IMG/VR virus record: IMGVR_UViG_2585427728_000004
Reading direction: 5' to 3' (one strand)
Length of the DNA stretch: 11,946 nt
Origin: a virus
Lineage: Duplodnaviria > Heunggongvirae > Uroviricota > Caudoviricetes
Shown here: positions 1 to 10,853 of the stretch, one piece after another
How the letters are laid out: the number at the start of each line of letters is the position of its first letter
How positions within the stretch are numbered: the stretch's first letter is position 1
Position numbers and translations under genes: made by a program
The notes under the pieces: model-generated
The model's input: the letters and a program-made list of their open reading frames with translations, nothing else
The model's database searches: none
Told to the model about the DNA's origin: nothing

Positions 1-1368
1 TTACTTCACGGAATATTTTGCCACGGTCGCTTTCGCGCCATGCGCTAATAAAGACAAGTACGTTTCCGTCACTCTTGCAGTAAACAAACTATTGTCTGGC
101 AAATCATCACCAAAGATCGCCTTAATCGCCAGCAATGACTGGACGCGCGCTTTCCCTTCGTCACTACTTTGTACAGCCTTCTGAATAACAGGTAACAGTG
201 GGTCACTGATTTCTATCGGATTTCCCTGTTCATCAACACCACCGACATAACGCATCCAACCCGCGACGCCCAGCGCCAGCAGATCGAACTTGCTGTCATG
301 CGCCAGATGCCAGCGAACAGAATCCAACATCCGCTGTGGCAATTTCTGGCTACCATCCATCGCAATCTGCCAGGTTCGATGACGTAACGCCGGGTTGCTA
401 TAGCGTGCAATTAATCGGTTAGCGTAATCTTGCAAATCAACGCCCTGCACTTTCAACGTCGGCGCTTGTTCCTGCAACATCAAGCCATACGCCGCATAAC
501 GATATTGTTCATCTTCCATACAGTCATTAATGTGCTGATATCCTGCAAGATACCCCAGATACGCCAGGAATGAATGACTGCCGTTGAGCATGCGCAACTT
601 CATCTCTTCATAAGGCAGCACATCGCTAACCAGTTCGGCTCCCGCTTTTTCCCATTCCGGACGTCCGGCAACAAAGTTATCTTCTATTACCCACTGGCGG
701 AAAGGTTCACAGGCAACGCCCGCAGGATCGCCCACACCGGTAAGTTGTTCGATTTTCGCCAGCGTATCCTCTGTCACTGCGGGCACAATACGGTCCACCA
801 TTGTTGATGGGAAAGTCACGTTATCTTCGATCCATTGTGCCAGTTTTACATCAACGGCTTGTGCGTAGGAAGTGACAACGTCACGCATAACATGACCGTT
901 TTCTGGCATGTTGTCACATGACATGACGGTAAATGCGGGAAGTCCTGCCGCTTTACGGCGAGCCAGCGCCTCAACAATCACCCCTGTTGCTGTTTTCGGC
1001 TGGTGGGGATTTTGCACGTCGGCAGCGACCATCGGGTGATCGAGCATTAACTGTCCGGTCGCCGGAGAGTGGAAATACCCTTTTTCGGTGATTGTCAGAG
1101 AGACAATCGCAATTTGCGGTTCACACATCGCAGCCAGCACGGTTTCTAAGCCATCTATTTGTACGTGCAAGGCTTTTTTAACGACGCCAACGACGCGAGC
1201 CGTCCACGCGTCGGCCGACATTTCCGCAACGGTATAAAGATTATCTTGCTGTTGTAAATCGGCAATTTGCTGTTCGCCGCCGATTAAGTTGACCTCATAA
1301 TATCCCCAGTCACTGAAATGTTCCGTAGCAAGAATACAGAGTGCGTATGAGCGCCTGCAGAAGAAGTG
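1..1368 (-). pseudogene. ydfI: Mannitol dehydrogenase family oxidoreductase (UxuB/YdfI-like), 5'-truncated remnant; the ORF-track ORF 1..1221 is its internal-ATG portion
   Basis: The 406-aa ORF aligns with the UxuB family from about residue 85 to the C-terminus ([45 protein letters not shown]). My hand translation of the same frame upstream of the ATG at 1221 continues the homology ([16 protein letters not shown]) up to an in-frame stop at 1369-1371 with no start codon, so the N-terminal Rossmann region is missing. Symbol is inferred from the neighbouring Qin-like prophage. Confidence 0.6.
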
Positions 1369-1930
1369 TTAACACTGTATTTAGAATAATCAGATGCTCC
1401 ACTTCCCGGAGCACCACTGGAACCACCTGAAACAAATGTCATCGAATGGGTATGTGCACCGGCTGAAGCAGCCGTACCGCTAACACTATGGGTATGCGCC
1501 CCGGTGTTATTCGTGGATTTAGTGCCGTAATCAAACGACGATGTGGTTTTCGTACCCAAATCCGTACTGGATGCGCTGGCGCTGTGGGTGTGCGATTTAA
1601 TGCCGTCCTGTTCCTGAGACAATATGGCTCGACCACTGGCGGGCTTGCCCTTAATCGTCCAGCCACGCAAATCAGGGATCACGCCTGACGGATAAGCGGC
1701 AGCAAGTTTCGGGTAGGCAGATTTGTCAAAAGTCTGCCCCTGCATCAGGGCATAACCAGACGGAACGGTATCTGATGGCCACGGGATTGGTGCGCCGACT
1801 GGGTAGCTTTCTGGTGGAAGATTTTTCGAGGTATAAACTTCTGCCCAGTCTTCCTCAAAACCATAGCCATCTCTTGAAGAACGGTAGAACAGACCTCCAT
1901 TTCTGTAATGCGCCTTCATCTGCAGGGTCC
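1338..1930 (-). pseudogene. Side tail fiber protein C-terminal fragment (Stf/gp37-like tip with GAHTHS repeats), lacking its N-terminal part; approximate boundaries
   Basis: ORF 1284..2051 contains [12 protein letters not shown]...[34 protein letters not shown] followed by three GAHTHS repeats typical of lambda Stf/T4 gp37-type fiber tips. The first ~44 codons and last ~17 codons of that ORF are out-of-frame readings of terminase and ydfI DNA respectively. Confidence 0.55.
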
Positions 1931-3339
1931 GGCAACTTCCGACTCCGGTAGCTGGCCGGATCAATTCGCTGGCTCTCCCCGTCGCTGTCACCGCGCAATG
2001 ACTGCGTGATGTTGTAACGATCAATAATCCAGCGTTCGCCACGGCTGCCATAGCCCGTTACCTGAACCACAAAACGGCGATGACGTCCCGCCTGCACATC
2101 CACTGTCGCCACAAGGAAATTAACGCCATCCGGCACACTGCGGGAAGGAACTGGCTCTGCCCGCTGCTCAAGCAATTCACTTTTTCGTTGCTCCATGCTG
2201 GCGCGGGGAAGATAAGGTAATCCCCAGTCGGTATTGATAACCGTCTTGAGTGTCTCTTCACTTCCGGTTGTCTCGTATTCCTGTTCTGCAGTAAGCAGCT
2301 TGTAAACGAGTTGCGAGAGTGTCTGATAAGCAGCTGCCGGACCCTCCATCCAGAATGACGCAATACGTGAACGCCGGGGATCACCATAACGACTGCCATC
2401 TGCATTGATGGATTCACCATCCCGTAACCAGACCCCACGTCCGTTCAGCTCGCGTTTTTGTTCAGGCAAAATCCGTCCTGAACAGGAAGGACACTGAATA
2501 TAAGCCGCCTCACTTGCCAGCACAGGATCGGCAATATCACGGAAACCAGCAACCACATCGCCGCAGGGCTGAAAATACTCACCACAGTGTGGACAGGGCC
2601 AGTACCAGCGACGGCGATCGCCACGGTTATAGAGCGACAGGATCCCCGTGGTTGGTGGAGCCTCATGCGGTGAAGTCCGTCGCCATTTCACATCCTTCAC
2701 ATCCCTGCCGGGGGAACTCTCCACCAGCGTCATACCACTGGACATAAATGTGGTGGTACGTTTTGAGGCAAGAGAGAAGGCATCCCCCTCACCATCAATA
2801 TCTTCCGGAAAACGGTCATAATCCGTCAGCGCCACGCATTTATAATCTGATGAAGACATGATATTGACTGACGGCCAGCCGATTTTCAGGTAGTTGCCAG
2901 CAAGGAATGTTCTGTCATAAACGTTGTTGTCATTTTTGTTCGGACTCAGGCGACTGACCACTTCCGGGCTGACGCGAAACGTTCTGGCGAGTCGTTTTTT
3001 GGAGTGTTCGCGGGCTTTTTCCTCCGTCATCTGAATGATCAGCATATCAGCAGGATCGCAAATCACGTTGTAAATCACCCAGCCGTCAATCAGGCCGATA
3101 GTCTTGCCGGTTCGTGCCGGGCCAACAAATATCACTGCGTCGTATTCACGCGAGGCCAGGCAGTTCATAGGCTCAATAACATACGGTGCCACCAGCGGAT
3201 CCCACGGGACTGAGTTCCCTGCCCCCATGGGCACCCGCATATACTGAGCAACGGCATCAGCAACCCGCATTCGTCTCGGTGCGCGAAGGATATAACCTGA
3301 ATCGGTTCGTGCTGCCTTTGCGGTTTCCTGATTCAGCAT
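1855..3339 (-). CDS. Phage terminase large subunit (lambda GpA family), C-terminally truncated and fused into tail-fiber DNA; probably non-functional
   Basis: 494-aa ORF with Walker-A-like GPARTGKT, the CPHCGE motif and a WIIDRYNI segment matching the lambda gpA nuclease-domain region. Lambda gpA is about 640 aa; homology ends near residue 465 and the frame then runs through tail-fiber sequence to a stop. The start ATG overlaps the upstream stop (TAATG). Confidence 0.75.
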
Positions 3340-3833
3340 TACTCCTCCTGCTGTAATTCCTCCTCATCATCCGCACCTGCTTCAGTCACCCGCAGGGCTA
3401 TCTGATCGCGCAGATCATCAATAATGGACTGAACACGGCTCACAGCGTCAGGCTGCAGACCGCAGTCACGTTCAAGAATATCCGGTAATGTCTCCAGCAC
3501 CTGCACGACCGCTTTTGCCCAGATGGCAAACTCCCGTCTGACATCACTGGCCGGAATGAGTTGTGCCGTTTCCTGTTCGAACTTAAGACGCTCACGTTCA
3601 GACTGATACCAGGCTTTGCGCTCATGCGCGTCCATTTCGCCTTCTGCAACCGGCGGTGGTAATGCCAGAAATGCCGACACAATATCAACCACCCGATAAA
3701 GCTTGAGGTTGCTTTCATGCCCCCCTGCAACGGGTAGATTTTGCAGCCTTGCCGCAGCAGTCTGGCGATGTACACCTGACAATGCCGCCAGTTGACTGAT
3801 ATTCAGCGTCAGATTTTTTAACTCTCGATCCAT
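3339..3833 (-). CDS. nohA: Terminase small subunit / DNA-packaging protein (Nu1/NohA-like)
   Basis: 164-aa ORF directly upstream of and overlapping the terminase large subunit gene; N-terminal HTH-like LNISQLAALSGVHRQTAAARL and an acidic C-terminus; a cos-like sequence lies ~190 bp upstream, as in lambda. Confidence 0.75.
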   Translation of the reverse strand: MDRELKNLTLNISQLAALSGVHRQTAAARLQNLPVAGGHESNLKLYRVVDIVSAFLALPPPVAEGEMDAHERKAWYQSERERLKFEQETAQLIPASDVRREFAIWAKAVVQVLETLPDILERDCGLQPDAVSRVQSIIDDLRDQIALRVTEAGADDEEELQQEE

Positions 3834-3989
3834 ACCCGCTCCAGAATGTTTTAAACATGCATCTTGCGAACAACTTTAGGCAAACGGTGTTAGTGATGAA
3901 CAAAAAACAATCAGAATCGACACCATAAAAATAAAACAACTGTAATATCAATCAATTACAGTAGTGGTGATGACGAATAAAATTTCAAA

Positions 3990-4045
3990 AACTAGCCTTT
4001 TTCCGCGACGCTCCCGCCCCGTGGCAGGGACCCCCACTGGGAGGA
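3990..4045. other. cos (cohesive-end) site of lambdoid prophage; cosN-like 12-mer at 4008..4019, read on the minus strand as GGGCGGGAGCGT
   Basis: Minus-strand sequence TCGGGTCCTCCCAGTGGGGGTCCCTGCCACG|GGGCGGGAGCGTCGCGGAAAAAGGCTAGTTTTTGAAATTTT resembles the remembered lambda ends (right end ...ACGGGTCCTTTCCGGTGATCCGACAGGTTACG, left end GGGCGGCGACCTCGCGGGTTTTCGCTATTTATGAAAATTTTCC). Distance to the terminase small subunit start (~190 bp) matches lambda cosN to Nu1. Confidence 0.55.
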
Positions 4046-4385
4046 CCCGACAGCCTGACAACCGTGACGAGCATCTGAAACAGAGCTTTACATAATGGCA
4101 TGGGGATAATTCAGAAGGACATCACAGCATGCCCACACAAATTAGTGTGAGTGTCCTGTTTCTTACTACGCGCAGGACTGACGAGCATGAGGGGAAAATA
4201 CGCGAACCGAAATGCCTTATCTTCAGAAATGCAGCCGGCATCCGAACTGGACGATATTGTAAATTCACCTAAATACGAGGCATTGCTGTAGTTGAATTGC
4301 AGTACTGTATTAGCCTTACAGTGACAGAATACGATATTGACTCTGTCACTTGTGAAATGGTCAGAATGGTTAGCAGTTATGGTGA

Positions 4386-4592
4386 TCAGTCAACCACCAG
4401 GGAATAATCCTTCGTATTCTTATCGTGCTTTACTAACGCGGCCTCAATTGCCCTGAATGCTTCCAGAGATACTTGATGTTCTATACATGCAATTACAACA
4501 TCCGGGTAACCCATCGAAATGGTGCTATTAAGCATAGTTTTTACACGAACCTGCTCCTGGGACGGGGCATCAGTGTATTGATCTTTATGCAT
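4386..4592 (-). CDS. Small prophage protein of unknown function (YbcW/YnfO-like, 68 aa)
   Basis: 68-aa ORF with GGAG Shine-Dalgarno ~8 nt upstream of the ATG; size and position (between the packaging genes and the lysis region) match the small DLP12/Qin ORFs of this type. Confidence 0.5.
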
Positions 4593-4794
4593 TTTGTCGC
4601 TCCATTCGTTTGCTCTTCACTTGCGGCTAAAAATATAACGTCAAATCACTCAGCATGAAAGAGTGAAAGTTTCAGCGCGTTTCCCTTACATAATCTGTCG
4701 TTTGTATTCTCTTCAGGCATACCGGAAAGACTAGGTATTGTCACACAACCAATACCATCGACAATCGAGATTTATATCTATTCGGTAATGTTTA

Positions 4795-5530: not shown

Positions 5531-5735
5531 TCATTTTCACTTTCTTAAATCTAACGACAGATGGCTAACATTTAAGTATTGTGAAATATTATCAAATGTA
5601 ATCATCATTGATTTACAAAAGATACATTTTGCCCCGAAAGGATTTCTGTCAGAAACATCAAAAGATGATGTTCTATACTGAGAACCATGGCAACACGGGC
5701 ATCTAAAGTGAATATGGTTTGTAATATTTTCTACC

Positions 5736-5948
5736 TCAAAGTGCCACTACATGAACAGCTGCAGGGCCTTTAGGTCCGTTCTCAATACCAAATTCGACTT
5801 CCTGATTCTCAGTTAACGTTTTGAAATCGTTGCTCTGAATAGCTGAGAAATGCACAAACACATCTTTGCTACCATCTTTCGGCGTGATGAAACCAAAACC
5901 TTTTTCAGGGTTAAACCATTTCACTAAACCAGTCATTTTGTTAGACAT
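5736..5948 (-). CDS. cspI: Cold shock protein CspA family (70 aa), CspI-like
   Basis: [70 protein letters not shown] carries the RNP1/RNP2 motifs (KGFGFI, VFVHF) of cold shock proteins; AAGG Shine-Dalgarno and a long AT-rich leader lie upstream. Confidence 0.9.
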
Positions 5949-6311
5949 CATTATTACCTTTTGAAGAAGTTAGCCCTTGGGCAGAATGGTCCGAAAAAAA
6001 ATATCAGAAAGAAAAACCAACAAGGAAATCTCAAGAGGTACAAATAATAAAATTATAACAATGACTGCTTCAGATAATTTTGTAACAAACCAGAACACCA
6101 TTAACGCATGATTAACCAACCATAGCAAGGATTACTTTTGTAAAGAAAAACACACGAATGAAACAATAGCTTTATTTATTAATAAAACGTGTCATTCTGT
6201 CTAATGACCTTTTATCTTACCCTTAAGATTTCAAGGATTTTGACTCATGGAAGAGTCCTTTTTATTTAAATTTCACATTCAGCGCTAAAAATAATCCGAT
6301 TTAATATTAAT

Positions 6312-7334
<1,023 letters not shown>

Positions 7335-7338
<4 letters not shown>

Positions 7339-8056: not shown

Positions 8057-8770
8057 CTAAGAAAATCTTGATAAATATTGGTGCGGAGGCACACCAAAAT
8101 ATCCTCTAAAAACACTTACAAAATATGATGCATTGTCATACCCGCATATTCCCGCCACCTTGCCGACAGTATGGTTACTGTAGATCAATAATCTTTGCGC
8201 CATCATCATTCGTTCTTCAAGAATTAATTTACTAAACGATAATCCTTCGTCTTTTAATTTTCTTTTTAACAAACTCTCGCTCATATATAATCTTGAAGAT
8301 ATATCACAAAGTCTCCATGACGCAGAGATATCCGAGTGAATAATAGCCTTAACTTTACAACCTAAGCTATTAAGACTTCCGAACAAAAAACTTTGCACTA
8401 TTTTCTCTGAAGATAAGACAGCAAGACATGCAAGTGATATTTGATTTCTAACTACATCCACGGTTTTGCTATCACAATTCAAGCATGCAACCAAGTTCTT
8501 TAACAATGAAAAATCTTCACATTCTACTATCAAGTATGACGGATAAAACCTTCTTACAGAAAAAGGTGAGAGTGTGTAGTTTTTAAAGAAATCATTAACT
8601 GTTTTCTCCTCAACATCTACGATCATTAGATGATCTGTATTTGACGAAAAAAGATCTTTTAAATTGTATTCAATGAGGACAGCATTTCCTTTTTTAAACA
8701 AAATATCTTCTTTACCAATTCGGACACCAAACGAGTTCAACACCAAAATGATAGAACATATGTATGGCAT
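8057..8770 (-). CDS. AraC/XylS-family transcriptional regulator (AppY/Rns-like size class, 237 aa from the ATG at 8770)
   Basis: C-terminal double HTH typical of AraC family (LLKRKLKDEGLSFSKLILEERMMMAQRLL...VGKVAGICGYDNASYFVSVFRGYFGVPPHQY). AGGTGG Shine-Dalgarno 5 nt before the ATG at 8770; the ORF-track start at 8779 is GTG. The gene and its ~400-bp upstream region are visibly AT-rich. Confidence 0.85.
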   Translation of the reverse strand: MPYICSIILVLNSFGVRIGKEDILFKKGNAVLIEYNLKDLFSSNTDHLMIVDVEEKTVNDFFKNYTLSPFSVRRFYPSYLIVECEDFSLLKNLVACLNCDSKTVDVVRNQISLACLAVLSSEKIVQSFLFGSLNSLGCKVKAIIHSDISASWRLCDISSRLYMSESLLKRKLKDEGLSFSKLILEERMMMAQRLLIYSNHTVGKVAGICGYDNASYFVSVFRGYFGVPPHQYLSRFS

Positions 8771-9176
8771 ATTATCCACCTGATATCATTGGGGTTACAC
8801 CAGGTAAGTATAGGTGGAAAATCAATATTCGCCAGTTCAACAATAAGGAAAATCTCATTGCATCACAACTATAAAACCATGTGTTTAACTCACAAAAAAC
8901 AAATCATTAAACTAATCTGTTATATTATAATAGCTGCGTGCAATAATAATATTATATGCTCTTAATATTCACTTGAAATATCTTCATATAAAAACAGATT
9001 GAATAAAATCTTTTGGGGCTGGTATGTTTACCAACATTAAATTGCATCTCAATGTTTTCTTTAGCGTGAACAGGATTTTTATAAAAACTGACACTATGAG
9101 CATCATAGCGTAGTTTTTACGATTGTAAATATCCTGCATACAGGAACTCATCACTTTCAGATGATATCGCATACAG
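8771..9176 (-). promoter_or_regulatory. AT-rich leader/promoter region of the AraC-family gene; candidate nucleoid-protein (H-NS-type) silencing target
   Basis: About 400 bp of very AT-rich non-coding DNA between two minus-strand genes. The only ORF here (8984..9172) is low-complexity with no ribosome-binding site. No specific promoter hexamers assigned. Confidence 0.3.
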
Positions 9177-10136
9177 TTAATTCACCATCAGTCTTAGAGC
9201 CAGTTCTTCCGGATAGGGATCGAAGTAGTTCTGTGTAAGCAAGTAATCATTAGGATACTCACCCAGATAATGCTTCAGCAGAGTCAACGGCGCAAGAAGA
9301 GGCAATGTGCCAAAGCGATAGTTAAGTATAACCTCGCTCAACTCTTTACGCTGGCGTGTACTTAAGTAATTACTAAAATACCCCTGTATATGCATCAGCA
9401 CATTCGTGTGATTTTTACGTGATGCTGGTTTTCTGAGAATCGCCATCAGATTATCACGATACACCTCAAAGTATGATTCAAGGTCCGCCCACTCGTGTAT
9501 TGCAGCCACAAATGGTCCCATATCTTTATAGCCTGCCTGGCTATGCGCCAACAACTGAAGCTTATAACGACTATGAAAAGCTAATAACTCTCTTCTTGAT
9601 AATTTCTCCTTGTAAAGGTGATTGAGCTCATGCAAAGCAAAAACTCTTTCAATAAAATTCTCACGAAGCACTGGATCATGTAATCGCCCATCCTCTTCAA
9701 CCGGTAGCCAGGAAAACTTTTCCATCAAAGTGCTCGTAAATAGTCCCACTCCATCTTTACGACCTCGATTACCATTTTCATCATAGACACGCACGCGCTC
9801 CATGCCACAGCTGGGAGATTTAGCACAAACCACAAACCCCGATACATCCTTTAATTTGTCCATATAAGAACGACTAAACTCTGTCATTCTCTCTGTCACA
9901 TCCTCATTCTGGTCGTGGCTGAAACACATCCGTATATTTCCTTGCTTCGAGCGCACAAGTCGTAGAGCAGGACGCGGAACTGGCAGCCCTATAGCCATTT
10001 CCGGACATACTGGTCTGAATGTTACCCATTCCACTAATTTGTCCATTAAAAAGTCATCTCTTTTGTGACCACCATCAAAACGAACAGCAGAACCGCCCAA
10101 ACAACCGCTGATCCCAATCACAGGTTTTTTTATCAT
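9177..10136 (-). CDS. DUF523/DUF1722 fusion protein (TudS-like putative [4Fe-4S] thionucleobase desulfidase with YbgA-like domain)
   Basis: N-terminal MIKKPVIGISGCLGGSAVRFDGGHKRD with three spaced cysteines (GISGC, PVCPE, SPSCG) as in DUF523/TudS; the C-terminal half resembles DUF1722 (YbgA). Strong GGGGGAGGAA Shine-Dalgarno 4 nt upstream of the ATG. Confidence 0.8.
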   Translation of the reverse strand: MIKKPVIGISGCLGGSAVRFDGGHKRDDFLMDKLVEWVTFRPVCPEMAIGLPVPRPALRLVRSKQGNIRMCFSHDQNEDVTERMTEFSRSYMDKLKDVSGFVVCAKSPSCGMERVRVYDENGNRGRKDGVGLFTSTLMEKFSWLPVEEDGRLHDPVLRENFIERVFALHELNHLYKEKLSRRELLAFHSRYKLQLLAHSQAGYKDMGPFVAAIHEWADLESYFEVYRDNLMAILRKPASRKNHTNVLMHIQGYFSNYLSTRQRKELSEVILNYRFGTLPLLAPLTLLKHYLGEYPNDYLLTQNYFDPYPEELALRLMVN

Positions 10137-10328
10137 TTCCTCCCCCTTGACTAATTCATTAACACATAAACTTTGTAGTGCACGGACTAAATTGCCTTTC
10201 TGGCTTCATCACTGACAATTTTTCTGTTATTGACTATTCCTAATATAGTAGGAAAGTTCTTTAAGTGATCGGTCGTACTCATCTATCTTTCATACTTACT
10301 CTCAACTATCAAAAGTACAGGATTTATT
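10137..10328. promoter_or_regulatory. Divergent intergenic region between the DUF523/DUF1722 gene and the lipocalin gene; presumed to hold both promoters
   Basis: 192-bp gap between divergently oriented starts; contains TTGACT- and TATAGT-like hexamers but no confident -35/-10 pairing by eye. Confidence 0.3.
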
Positions 10329-10853
10329 ATGAAGTTATGGCCTGTGTTGACTGGCATTGCACTCTCTTTCACTCTTATAGCATGTAAGGCCCCGACACCA
10401 CCTAAAGGTGTGCAGCCGATTACAAATTTTGACGCCAACCGCTACCTCGGAAAATGGTATGAAATAGCTCGCCTCGAGAACTGGTTCGAACGTGGTCTGG
10501 AACAGGTCAGCGCTACTTATGAAAAACGGAACGACGGAGGGATTCGCGTACTTAACCGTGGATACGATCCAACGAAAAACAAATGGAGCGAGAGCGAAGG
10601 TAAAGCATACTTTACTGGAGATACTAAAACTGCAGCGTTGAAAGTTTCGTTTTTTGGCCCCTTCTATGGTGGCTATAATGTAATCAAACTGGATGATGAG
10701 TATAAGTATGCTCTTGTCAGTGGTCCGAACAGAGAATACCTATGGATTCTGGCAAGGACCCAAACTATTCCAGATAATGTAAAAGCAGACTATGTGCGTA
10801 CCGCTCAAAAGTTGGGATTCAATGTCAATGAACTATTATGGGTTAAACAATAA
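10329..10853 (+). CDS. Bacterial lipocalin Blc-like outer-membrane lipoprotein (174 aa)
   Basis: Signal peptide with LIAC lipobox (MKLWPVLTGIALSFTLIAC), then Blc motifs NFDANRYLGKWYEIARLENWFERGLEQVSATY and GKAYFTGDTKTAALKVSFFGPFYGGYNVIKLD...YLWILARTQ. AGGA Shine-Dalgarno upstream. Only plus-strand gene in the window. Confidence 0.85.
   Translation: MKLWPVLTGIALSFTLIACKAPTPPKGVQPITNFDANRYLGKWYEIARLENWFERGLEQVSATYEKRNDGGIRVLNRGYDPTKNKWSESEGKAYFTGDTKTAALKVSFFGPFYGGYNVIKLDDEYKYALVSGPNREYLWILARTQTIPDNVKADYVRTAQKLGFNVNELLWVKQ

Follow-up and report, generated by a model that had tools for sequence, protein, structure and literature searches.

An apparently intact lambda-type cos site beside a DUF1441 small terminase gene in a lambdoid prophage remnant of Escherichia coli ET881

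Introduction

Can a prophage remnant that is no longer able to package itself still carry a working packaging site, and if so, which phages could cut it and what would be packaged? This question is raised by a short interval within the window, by which we mean the whole stretch of 11,946 nucleotides analysed here, in which a preliminary description had recognised a likeness to both ends of lambda upstream of a small terminase gene and had proposed that a superinfecting helper phage might package the region from it. In the lambda pathway, packaging is initiated at cosN together with a cosB that is matched to the small terminase, translocation proceeds from cosN through cosB, and termination requires a downstream cosQ and cosN (PMC4669245). 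Phages with a lambda-like cos have been defined by the Feiss laboratory through 12-base 5′ cohesive ends resembling lambda GGGCGGCGACCT; the 7-bp cosQ, which is highly conserved, and the CG dinucleotides at the nick sites are conserved among these phages, natural variation of the cohesive end is concentrated in positions 7-12, and changes in the right half have no measurable effect on cleavage (PMC4669245).

Here we locate the subsites of this cos, compare them with deposited phages and with other defective prophages, and weigh what the site could do. It is very probably the full, sequence-intact, lambda-type site of a lambdoid prophage remnant, lying beside an intact small terminase gene, which is inert alone and which a cognate phage could cut.

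The prophage remnant at the Qin locus

E. coli ET881 (NZ_CP100890.1) carries the window with 100% identity, at the locus that the cryptic prophage Qin occupies in the K-12 chromosome. The remnant in ET881 is about 11.8 kb long, with every phage gene and feature on the minus strand, and in the phage direction it runs from a ydfU-like DUF968 gene through the antiterminator gene Q, three cargo genes and the holin gene essD to ydfR, a frameshifted lysozyme gene, rzpQ, cspI, ynfQ, ynfN, gnsB and a ybcW-like ORF. There follows a gap of 552 nt, then the gene for a 164-aa DUF1441 protein and a truncated large terminase gene, and the order ends with a tail-fibre fragment and the 5′-truncated host gene ydfI. 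The tail-fibre fragment (1436..1955, minus strand; a RefSeq pseudogene with the Pfam domains Collar and Phage_fiber) is joined by a deletion to the terminase stump, while ydfI (1..1335, minus strand), whose N-terminus is absent, forms the boundary of the remnant and would be the first part of the chromosome reached by packaging. A truncated integrase lies outside the window, at the end opposite ydfI, and the annotation of the ET881 remnant holds no repressor, replication, excision, portal, capsid or tail genes.

Several other features of the element were observed. Between the antiterminator Q and the holin, at 8057-10853, lie three apparent cargo genes, encoding a lipocalin on the opposite strand (10329-10853), a YbgA-like protein of DUF523/DUF1722 type (9177-10136) and a helix-turn-helix protein (8057-8770). 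The lysozyme gene rrrQ (6806-7338, minus strand) is frameshifted in ET881 and intact in strain H2, and the holin, ydfR and rzpQ of ET881 are all intact. A cspA-type thermoregulator RNA leader (Rfam RF01766, 111 bits) at 5690-6095 on the minus strand overlaps the prophage cold-shock gene cspI (annotated at 5736-5948) and its upstream leader; this is the sole Rfam match in the window, and no RNA family is found at the cos site. A scan of 3700-4700 for terminators and promoters gave zero terminators and promoter-like matches at chance level only, and for these reasons a reading of the cos region as a transcription signal was dropped.

A lambda-like cosQ and cosN

On the minus strand the gap upstream of the small terminase gene reads GGGTCCT, then 22 nt ending in CCACG, then GGGCGGGAGCGT and then CGCGGAAAAAGGCTAGTTTTT. 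The heptamer (4042..4048, minus strand), which would be the packaging-termination subsite, is identical to the one near the right end of lambda and lies 22 bp upstream of the predicted nick; we take it to be the lambda cosQ of Wieczorek and Feiss (2001). The same heptamer occurs in mEp460, 569R4, phi458, PhiR40_1, Tritos, cdtI, CP-1639 and VT1-Sakai, and its distance to the nick is 22-24 bp in all compared phages of the terminase type of the window that carry it exactly; the exact heptamer is absent from Fels-1. The spacer between cosQ and cosN differs from that of most relatives by a few bases. It includes, at 4027-4033 on the minus strand, a near-copy of cosQ, GGGTCCC, which over the compared stretch is common only to the window and HannyBb, most relatives having GGGTGGCC there.

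The putative cosN is a 22-bp nicking site, CCACG/GGGCGGGAGCGT/CGCGG (4003..4024, minus strand), with 16 of 22 positions the same as in lambda cosN. The predicted nicks fall at 4020/4019 on the minus strand and 4008/4007 on the plus strand, 12 bp apart, the CG dinucleotides beside both are conserved, and rotational symmetry holds at 12/22 positions against 10/22 in lambda. The cohesive end so predicted, the 12-base 5′ extension GGGCGGGAGCGT (4008..4019, minus strand), is also where the GenBank records of Tritos and cdtI begin. The preliminary description had spoken of a 12-mer differing from lambda at a few positions, and indeed 8 of 12 bases match, with the left half identical (6/6) and mismatches at positions 7, 8, 9 and 11; lambda also has the same three bases before the nick and the same five beyond the 12-mer. 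It had also proposed alignment with the real lambda cos as the check on whether the likeness exceeds chance. Taken as ACG, the 12-mer and CGCGG, the site matches lambda at 16 of 20 positions, is unique in the window, and has no equal in 100 shuffled sequences, and the pattern cosQ-N20-25-CGGGGCGG-N6-CG occurs once in the window against 0 times in 200 shuffles. A search of the window for the lambda 20-mer with at most 3 mismatches is empty because 4 mismatches are present.

From the first base of the 12-mer to the small terminase ATG (3833) is 186 nt, in good agreement with the figure of about 190 bp given beforehand, and in lambda the Nu1 start is base 191. The interval first flagged, 3990-4045, falls on the right site; it clips cosQ and omits cosB, which extends down to about 3889. 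Several of the marks by which a lambda-like cos is recognised are found together in the window, namely cohesive-end identity, flanking CG with partial two-fold symmetry, cosQ and an AT-rich I2, and the original recognition of a lambda-like cos in a prophage was sound: cosQ, cosN, I2 and a cosB-like stretch are present on the minus strand as a complete lambda-type series.

A search of the literature for the exact 12-mer of the window returned one unrelated paper only. Natural cosN variation has reportedly been surveyed by Vahanian and colleagues in 2017. Among cohesive-end variants, GGGCGGCGCGCT has been cited for mEp213 and LLS (PMC12315714). With lambda the window shares cosQ (7/7), the left half of the 12-mer and the nick-flanking bases, whereas it differs in 4/12 cohesive-end bases, in an unrelated cosB, in the small terminase, which is of Nu1 type in lambda, and in having cosQ 1 bp closer to the nick. 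The likeness is closer still in Gifsy-1 of Salmonella, a member of the lambda-like list of the Feiss laboratory, whose cohesive end GGGCGGCAGCGT mismatches the window only at position 7 and in which 185 nt separate this end from the start of the small terminase gene; however, its small terminase belongs to the Nu1 family and its cosB has lambda/21-style R sequences, so that Gifsy-1 resembles the window in cosN only.

The terminase genes and cosB

The small terminase gene (3339..3833, minus strand) is intact and encodes a 164-aa protein of the DUF1441 family (Pfam PF07278, E = 2.4e-42), which also matches PHROG 141, "terminase small subunit" (E = 9.6e-74), and is identical at 163 of 164 residues to the small terminases of phi458 and 569R4. 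It is not of the Nu1 family: PF07278 is the only family matched, and BLASTP against lambda Nu1 gives E = 19, while PF07471 (Phage_Nu1) is matched by lambda Nu1, K-12 NohA and the Gifsy-1 small terminase.

The large terminase gene (1948..3339, minus strand) is truncated, its product being the same as mEp460 TerL at 463 of 464 residues and divergent thereafter. Most of this protein had been thought lost, which is not the case, since residues 1-464 of 700 (66%) are kept and the last third is missing. The stump spans the whole ATPase domain (profile 2-247 of 247) and profile positions 1-115 of 294 of the nuclease domain. With the corresponding proteins of Tritos and cdtI it shares about 81% identity, against only about 25% with lambda gpA; it is a GpA-family protein by descent, but a truncated one in which the domains are not all complete. 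The module belongs to the terminase type of mEp460, cdtI and Fels-1, in which a DUF1441 small terminase and a GpA-family large terminase go together with a lambda-like cosQ and cosN. The earlier view that the element is unable to package itself is upheld, with TerL cut within its nuclease domain and portal, capsid and tail genes absent. Alone, the element is inert: TerL is without about 60% of its nuclease domain and without its C-terminus, and genes for heads, tails, replication and excision are absent.

The sequence that follows the cohesive end was compared in an alignment of the window and seven phages with the same small terminase type, to which lambda was added. Base pairs 18-43 form an I2-like AT-rich spacer with poly-dA and poly-dT runs, AAAAAGGCTAGTTTTTGAAATTTTAT (3977..4002, minus strand), in position and character like lambda I2 (PMC4856287), and bases 1-33 from the cohesive end are identical in Tritos, cdtI and HannyBb. 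Next comes an R3-like candidate binding site for the small terminase, TCGTCATCACCACTAC (3961..3976, minus strand), at bp 44-59, where lambda R3 lies at bp 50-65 (PMC9026076); phages with DUF1441-type small terminases have its CATCAYCAY core in common. An I1-like IHF consensus, TATCAATCAATTA (WATCAANNNNTTR), stands on the plus strand at 3946..3958, between the R3-like and R2-like sites. The consensus has 2 matches in the window against 0.85 expected by chance, one of them being this match in the place expected for cosB, and its ATTGAT core is conserved in relatives. The putative R2-like site, TGGTGTCGAT (3916..3925, minus strand), is an inverted imperfect copy of the R3 core (6/9 match to the inverted core); in Fels-1 and VT1-Sakai, the element at the R2 position repeats the R3 core of the same phage exactly, in inverted orientation. 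Finally, sequence and alignment point to a putative R1-like site, GTTCATCACTAAC (3889..3901, minus strand), in which the TCATCAC core is repeated directly at a distance of 74 bp from the R3 core.

The cosB sequence of the window is unrelated to lambda cosB in the alignment. Its order of R3-like, IHF, R2-like and R1-like sites nevertheless appears to mirror the R3-I1-R2-R1 order of lambda (PMC9026076), the R sites being assigned by position and short repeats. The whole layout of cosQ, cosN, I2 and cosB, with 159-201 nt to the small terminase gene, is recurrent in eight phages of this terminase type. To our knowledge, the cosB of DUF1441-type terminases has never been mapped experimentally. The IHF consensus is flanked by an 11-nt inverted repeat, 3936-3946 / 3955-3965 (ACAACTGTAAT / ATTACAGTAGT, 91% complementary), which is retained in the closest relatives mEp460 and phi458 and absent from Fels-1 and the Sakai phages; this repeat could be an alternative binding site for the small terminase.

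An element of about 11.8 kb is of satellite size, and the combination of a lambda-like cosN with a different cosB is found in the cos-type phage-inducible islands (PICIs) of E. coli (PMC9026076), which would make the site that of a satellite diverting the terminase of a helper. The genes around it are, however, those of an ordinary lambdoid late region (Q, holin, lysozyme, Rz, small and large terminase), complete phages have a nearly identical cos and small terminase, and sister strains hold progressively larger versions of the same prophage. There is no functional integrase, and alpA, primase-replicase and rpp do not appear in the annotation, the one source consulted for them. A cos-type PICI was rejected on this gene content, and we see practically no chance of its being right.

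Relatives of the site and its intactness

A sensitive search for the cos region of the window was made among 50,697 phage records. The cdtI records (AB285204 / NC_009514) begin exactly at window position 4019, with 33 identical bases. The left end of Tritos (OV696610) is GGGCGGGAGCGTCGCGGAAAAAGGCTAGTTTTT, starting at the 12-mer, and its right end, ...CCTGCCACG, corresponds to window position 4020 (...CCACG). The records of mEp460 and Ayreon are opened arbitrarily, at the small terminase gene. The ends of the deposited Tritos and cdtI records, taken with the lambda match, the Gifsy-1 match, the layout and the IHF site, point to a genuine cos.

Tritos, which is a prophage of E. coli LF82, and cdtI agree with the window in cosQ, the bases beside the nicks, the 12-mer and the 21 bases that follow it, and in having a DUF1441 small terminase with a GpA-type large terminase. 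They diverge from it abruptly after bp 33, having another cosB and a small terminase only about 41% identical, and therefore their packaging specificity is probably different from that of the window. The mosaic breakpoint, 33 bp into the left end (window 3986-4019, minus strand), is sharp: Tritos, cdtI and HannyBb match through GGCTAGTTTTT and are unrelated beyond, from which it would follow that the cosQ-cosN-I2 block has been exchanged independently of the cosB and small terminase alleles.

In contrast, mEp460, phi458 and vB_EcoS-569R4 share the whole cosQ-cosN-I2-cosB layout at 88-95% identity, together with the small terminase (158/160 to 163/164 identical) and the large terminase (463/464), and differ in being complete phages with a full 700-aa large terminase. 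Two oddities were observed in the deposited sequence of mEp460 (JQ182728). It has G, not T, at position 12 of the cohesive end (GGGCGGGAGCGG), and it has ACG where the window and the other relatives have the small terminase ATG, and therefore its annotation uses an upstream start (172 aa).

It might be argued that a site in such a remnant is only a cos lookalike, so changed that no terminase can cut it. The remnant is decaying, with rrrQ frameshifted and both TerL and the integrase truncated, and a few substitutions relative to mEp460, phi458 and 569R4 are seen in the cosQ-cosN spacer, I2 and the IHF region. These substitutions fall outside the recognised cores, however, and for each recognised subsite at least one deposited phage genome has an identical copy: cosQ, cosN and I2 are those of HannyBb, Tritos and cdtI (the cosQ-cosN-I2 block being 100% identical to HannyBb over 155 bp), the R3 core is that of mEp460 and R1 that of phi458. 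The spacing of the subsites is unchanged, identity with phi458 and 569R4 is 95-99% over cosB and the small terminase, and the latter differs from phage copies at a single residue of 164. A dead relic is for these reasons quite unlikely, and the site has apparently not decayed.

What the site could do

The preliminary description had envisaged that a cos-compatible helper could package and transduce this region. There is a precedent for packaging in trans: in O157 Sakai, the terminase-defective prophage Sp4 is packaged by the terminase of Sp14 through an identical cos (PMC2669165). If any cos-compatible lambdoid helper, lambda, 21 and similar phages included, could do the same here, the prophage region would be packaged and transduced, and this documented trans-packaging of a defective prophage is what speaks for it. 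On the other hand, cosB and the small terminase are not of the Nu1 family, and lambda and 21, which have identical cosQ and cosN, already exclude each other more than 1000-fold through cosB (PMC4669245). With a DUF1441 small terminase, an unrelated cosB and this mutual exclusion of lambda and 21, the competent helpers would therefore be of mEp460, phi458 and 569R4 type, not lambda or 21. By analogy, initiation here should be confined to phages with this small terminase allele, and Tritos, cdtI and HannyBb, all with a small terminase about 41% identical to that of the window, would be expected to terminate at this cos and not to initiate from it.

The substrate also differs from that of Sakai, where Sp4 excises, amplifies and is near phage size, whereas the ET881 remnant is without an intact integrase, replication genes or a cognate partner. 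With no intact integrase or replication genes, it cannot form concatemers. From +10 to +60 kb downstream in ET881 no cosN-like or cosQ-cosN pattern is found, the sequence out to about +10 kb has no second CGGGGCGG, and the second cosQ-cosN in the same orientation, some 0.75-1.05 phage genome lengths downstream, that a cos-to-cos substrate calls for is absent. Upstream of the remnant there is no prophage in about 63 kb, and this cos-terminase module is found once in ET881, which has no resident cognate terminase. Without a second cos within 60 kb, excision and replication genes or a resident cognate terminase, cos-to-cos transduction is not expected. Packaging would, in addition, proceed away from the accessory genes of the prophage. 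We consider packaging and transduction of the region by any lambdoid helper unlikely, and the general idea of trans-packaging is sound and has its precedent, while the helper would not be any lambdoid phage, a termination site is lacking and the cargo would be another.

What we favour is a site that is inert alone and open to cutting by a cognate phage. The small subunit of a terminase of mEp460, phi458 or 569R4 type would attach to cosB, and the enzyme would nick 12 bp apart at 4020/4019 and 4008/4007 and draw in DNA through cosB and the small terminase gene toward lower window coordinates and the ydfI-mar-lsr flank. The cargo would then consist of the small terminase gene, the truncated large terminase gene and after them ydfI, dcp, mar, lsr and hipBA, with the Q, lysis and csp genes of the prophage left out. 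For want of a cos downstream, normal termination would be impossible, and the likely outcomes are a chromosomal double-strand break, abortive one-cos particles and stimulated recombination of the remnant with the incoming phage. For lambda, packaging from a single cos into "doc" particles is described in the classical literature. Enhanced recombination has been proposed between the DLP12 cos and lambda (PMC3945230). Efficient transduction from this site is not expected.

Cryptic prophages, frequency and significance

The nearest parallels are found in K-12, where Qin has a cos upstream of nohA and DLP12 a cos upstream of nohD, each a defective prophage that keeps cos and an intact small terminase gene; the DLP12 cos has been discussed as a hot spot of recombination between lambda and the prophage (PMC3945230). 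Qin occupies the same chromosomal locus as the ET881 remnant, and the large terminase is deleted in Qin and a stump in DLP12. The two K-12 prophages differ from ET881 in that their cosQ and cosN are identical to those of lambda and their small terminases are of Nu1 type, whereas ET881 has the DUF1441-type module.

The Qin locus was also compared between strains. In H2 the large terminase gene is full-length and is followed by a W-like gene and a truncated portal gene, the last of these running into a tail-fibre assembly fragment; in ET881, codon 464 of the large terminase is joined to the tail-fibre fragment (window 1948-1955), with ydfI beyond; and in K-12 Qin, nohA is joined directly to stfQ. 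Cos and the small terminase gene are kept in all three. H2 carries the same prophage less eroded, and ET881 can therefore be seen as one step in a nested deletion series.

Because cos and the small terminase survive in independently eroded prophages, K-12 Qin, DLP12, H2 and ET881, one may ask whether an intact pair is maintained by selection and not by accident, either as a terminase decoy in defence or as a launch point for export. A decoy would capture the large terminase of incoming mEp460 or Tritos-type phages and so defend the cell, and a launch point would allow a one-directional export, like lateral transduction, of the adjacent mar-lsr-hipBA segment. We think selection of either kind very improbable.

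The 81-bp cosQ-cosN-I2 segment is present in 2066 of 5426 complete E. coli genomes, in up to 7 copies per genome, and the stretch from cos through the small terminase to the truncated large terminase is covered at ≥80% in 1311 complete E. coli genomes. With such a cos in more than one third of E. coli genomes, the original observation is right but describes nothing unusual: the feature is a relic of an ordinary and already known kind, for which Qin and DLP12 of K-12 are the textbook parallels, and the only mildly under-described aspect is the cosB of DUF1441-type terminases. The survival of cos in cryptic prophages and its role in recombination or trans-packaging are already documented, and the value of the present analysis lies mainly in annotation: it places precisely the cos of a very common E. 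coli prophage terminase type, a site unannotated in RefSeq, where the small terminase of this type is labelled merely "DUF1441". It also predicts which phages could cut the ET881 chromosome here, and it indicates that terminases with only about 25% identity to the lambda enzyme make use of a lambda-like cosQ and cosN.
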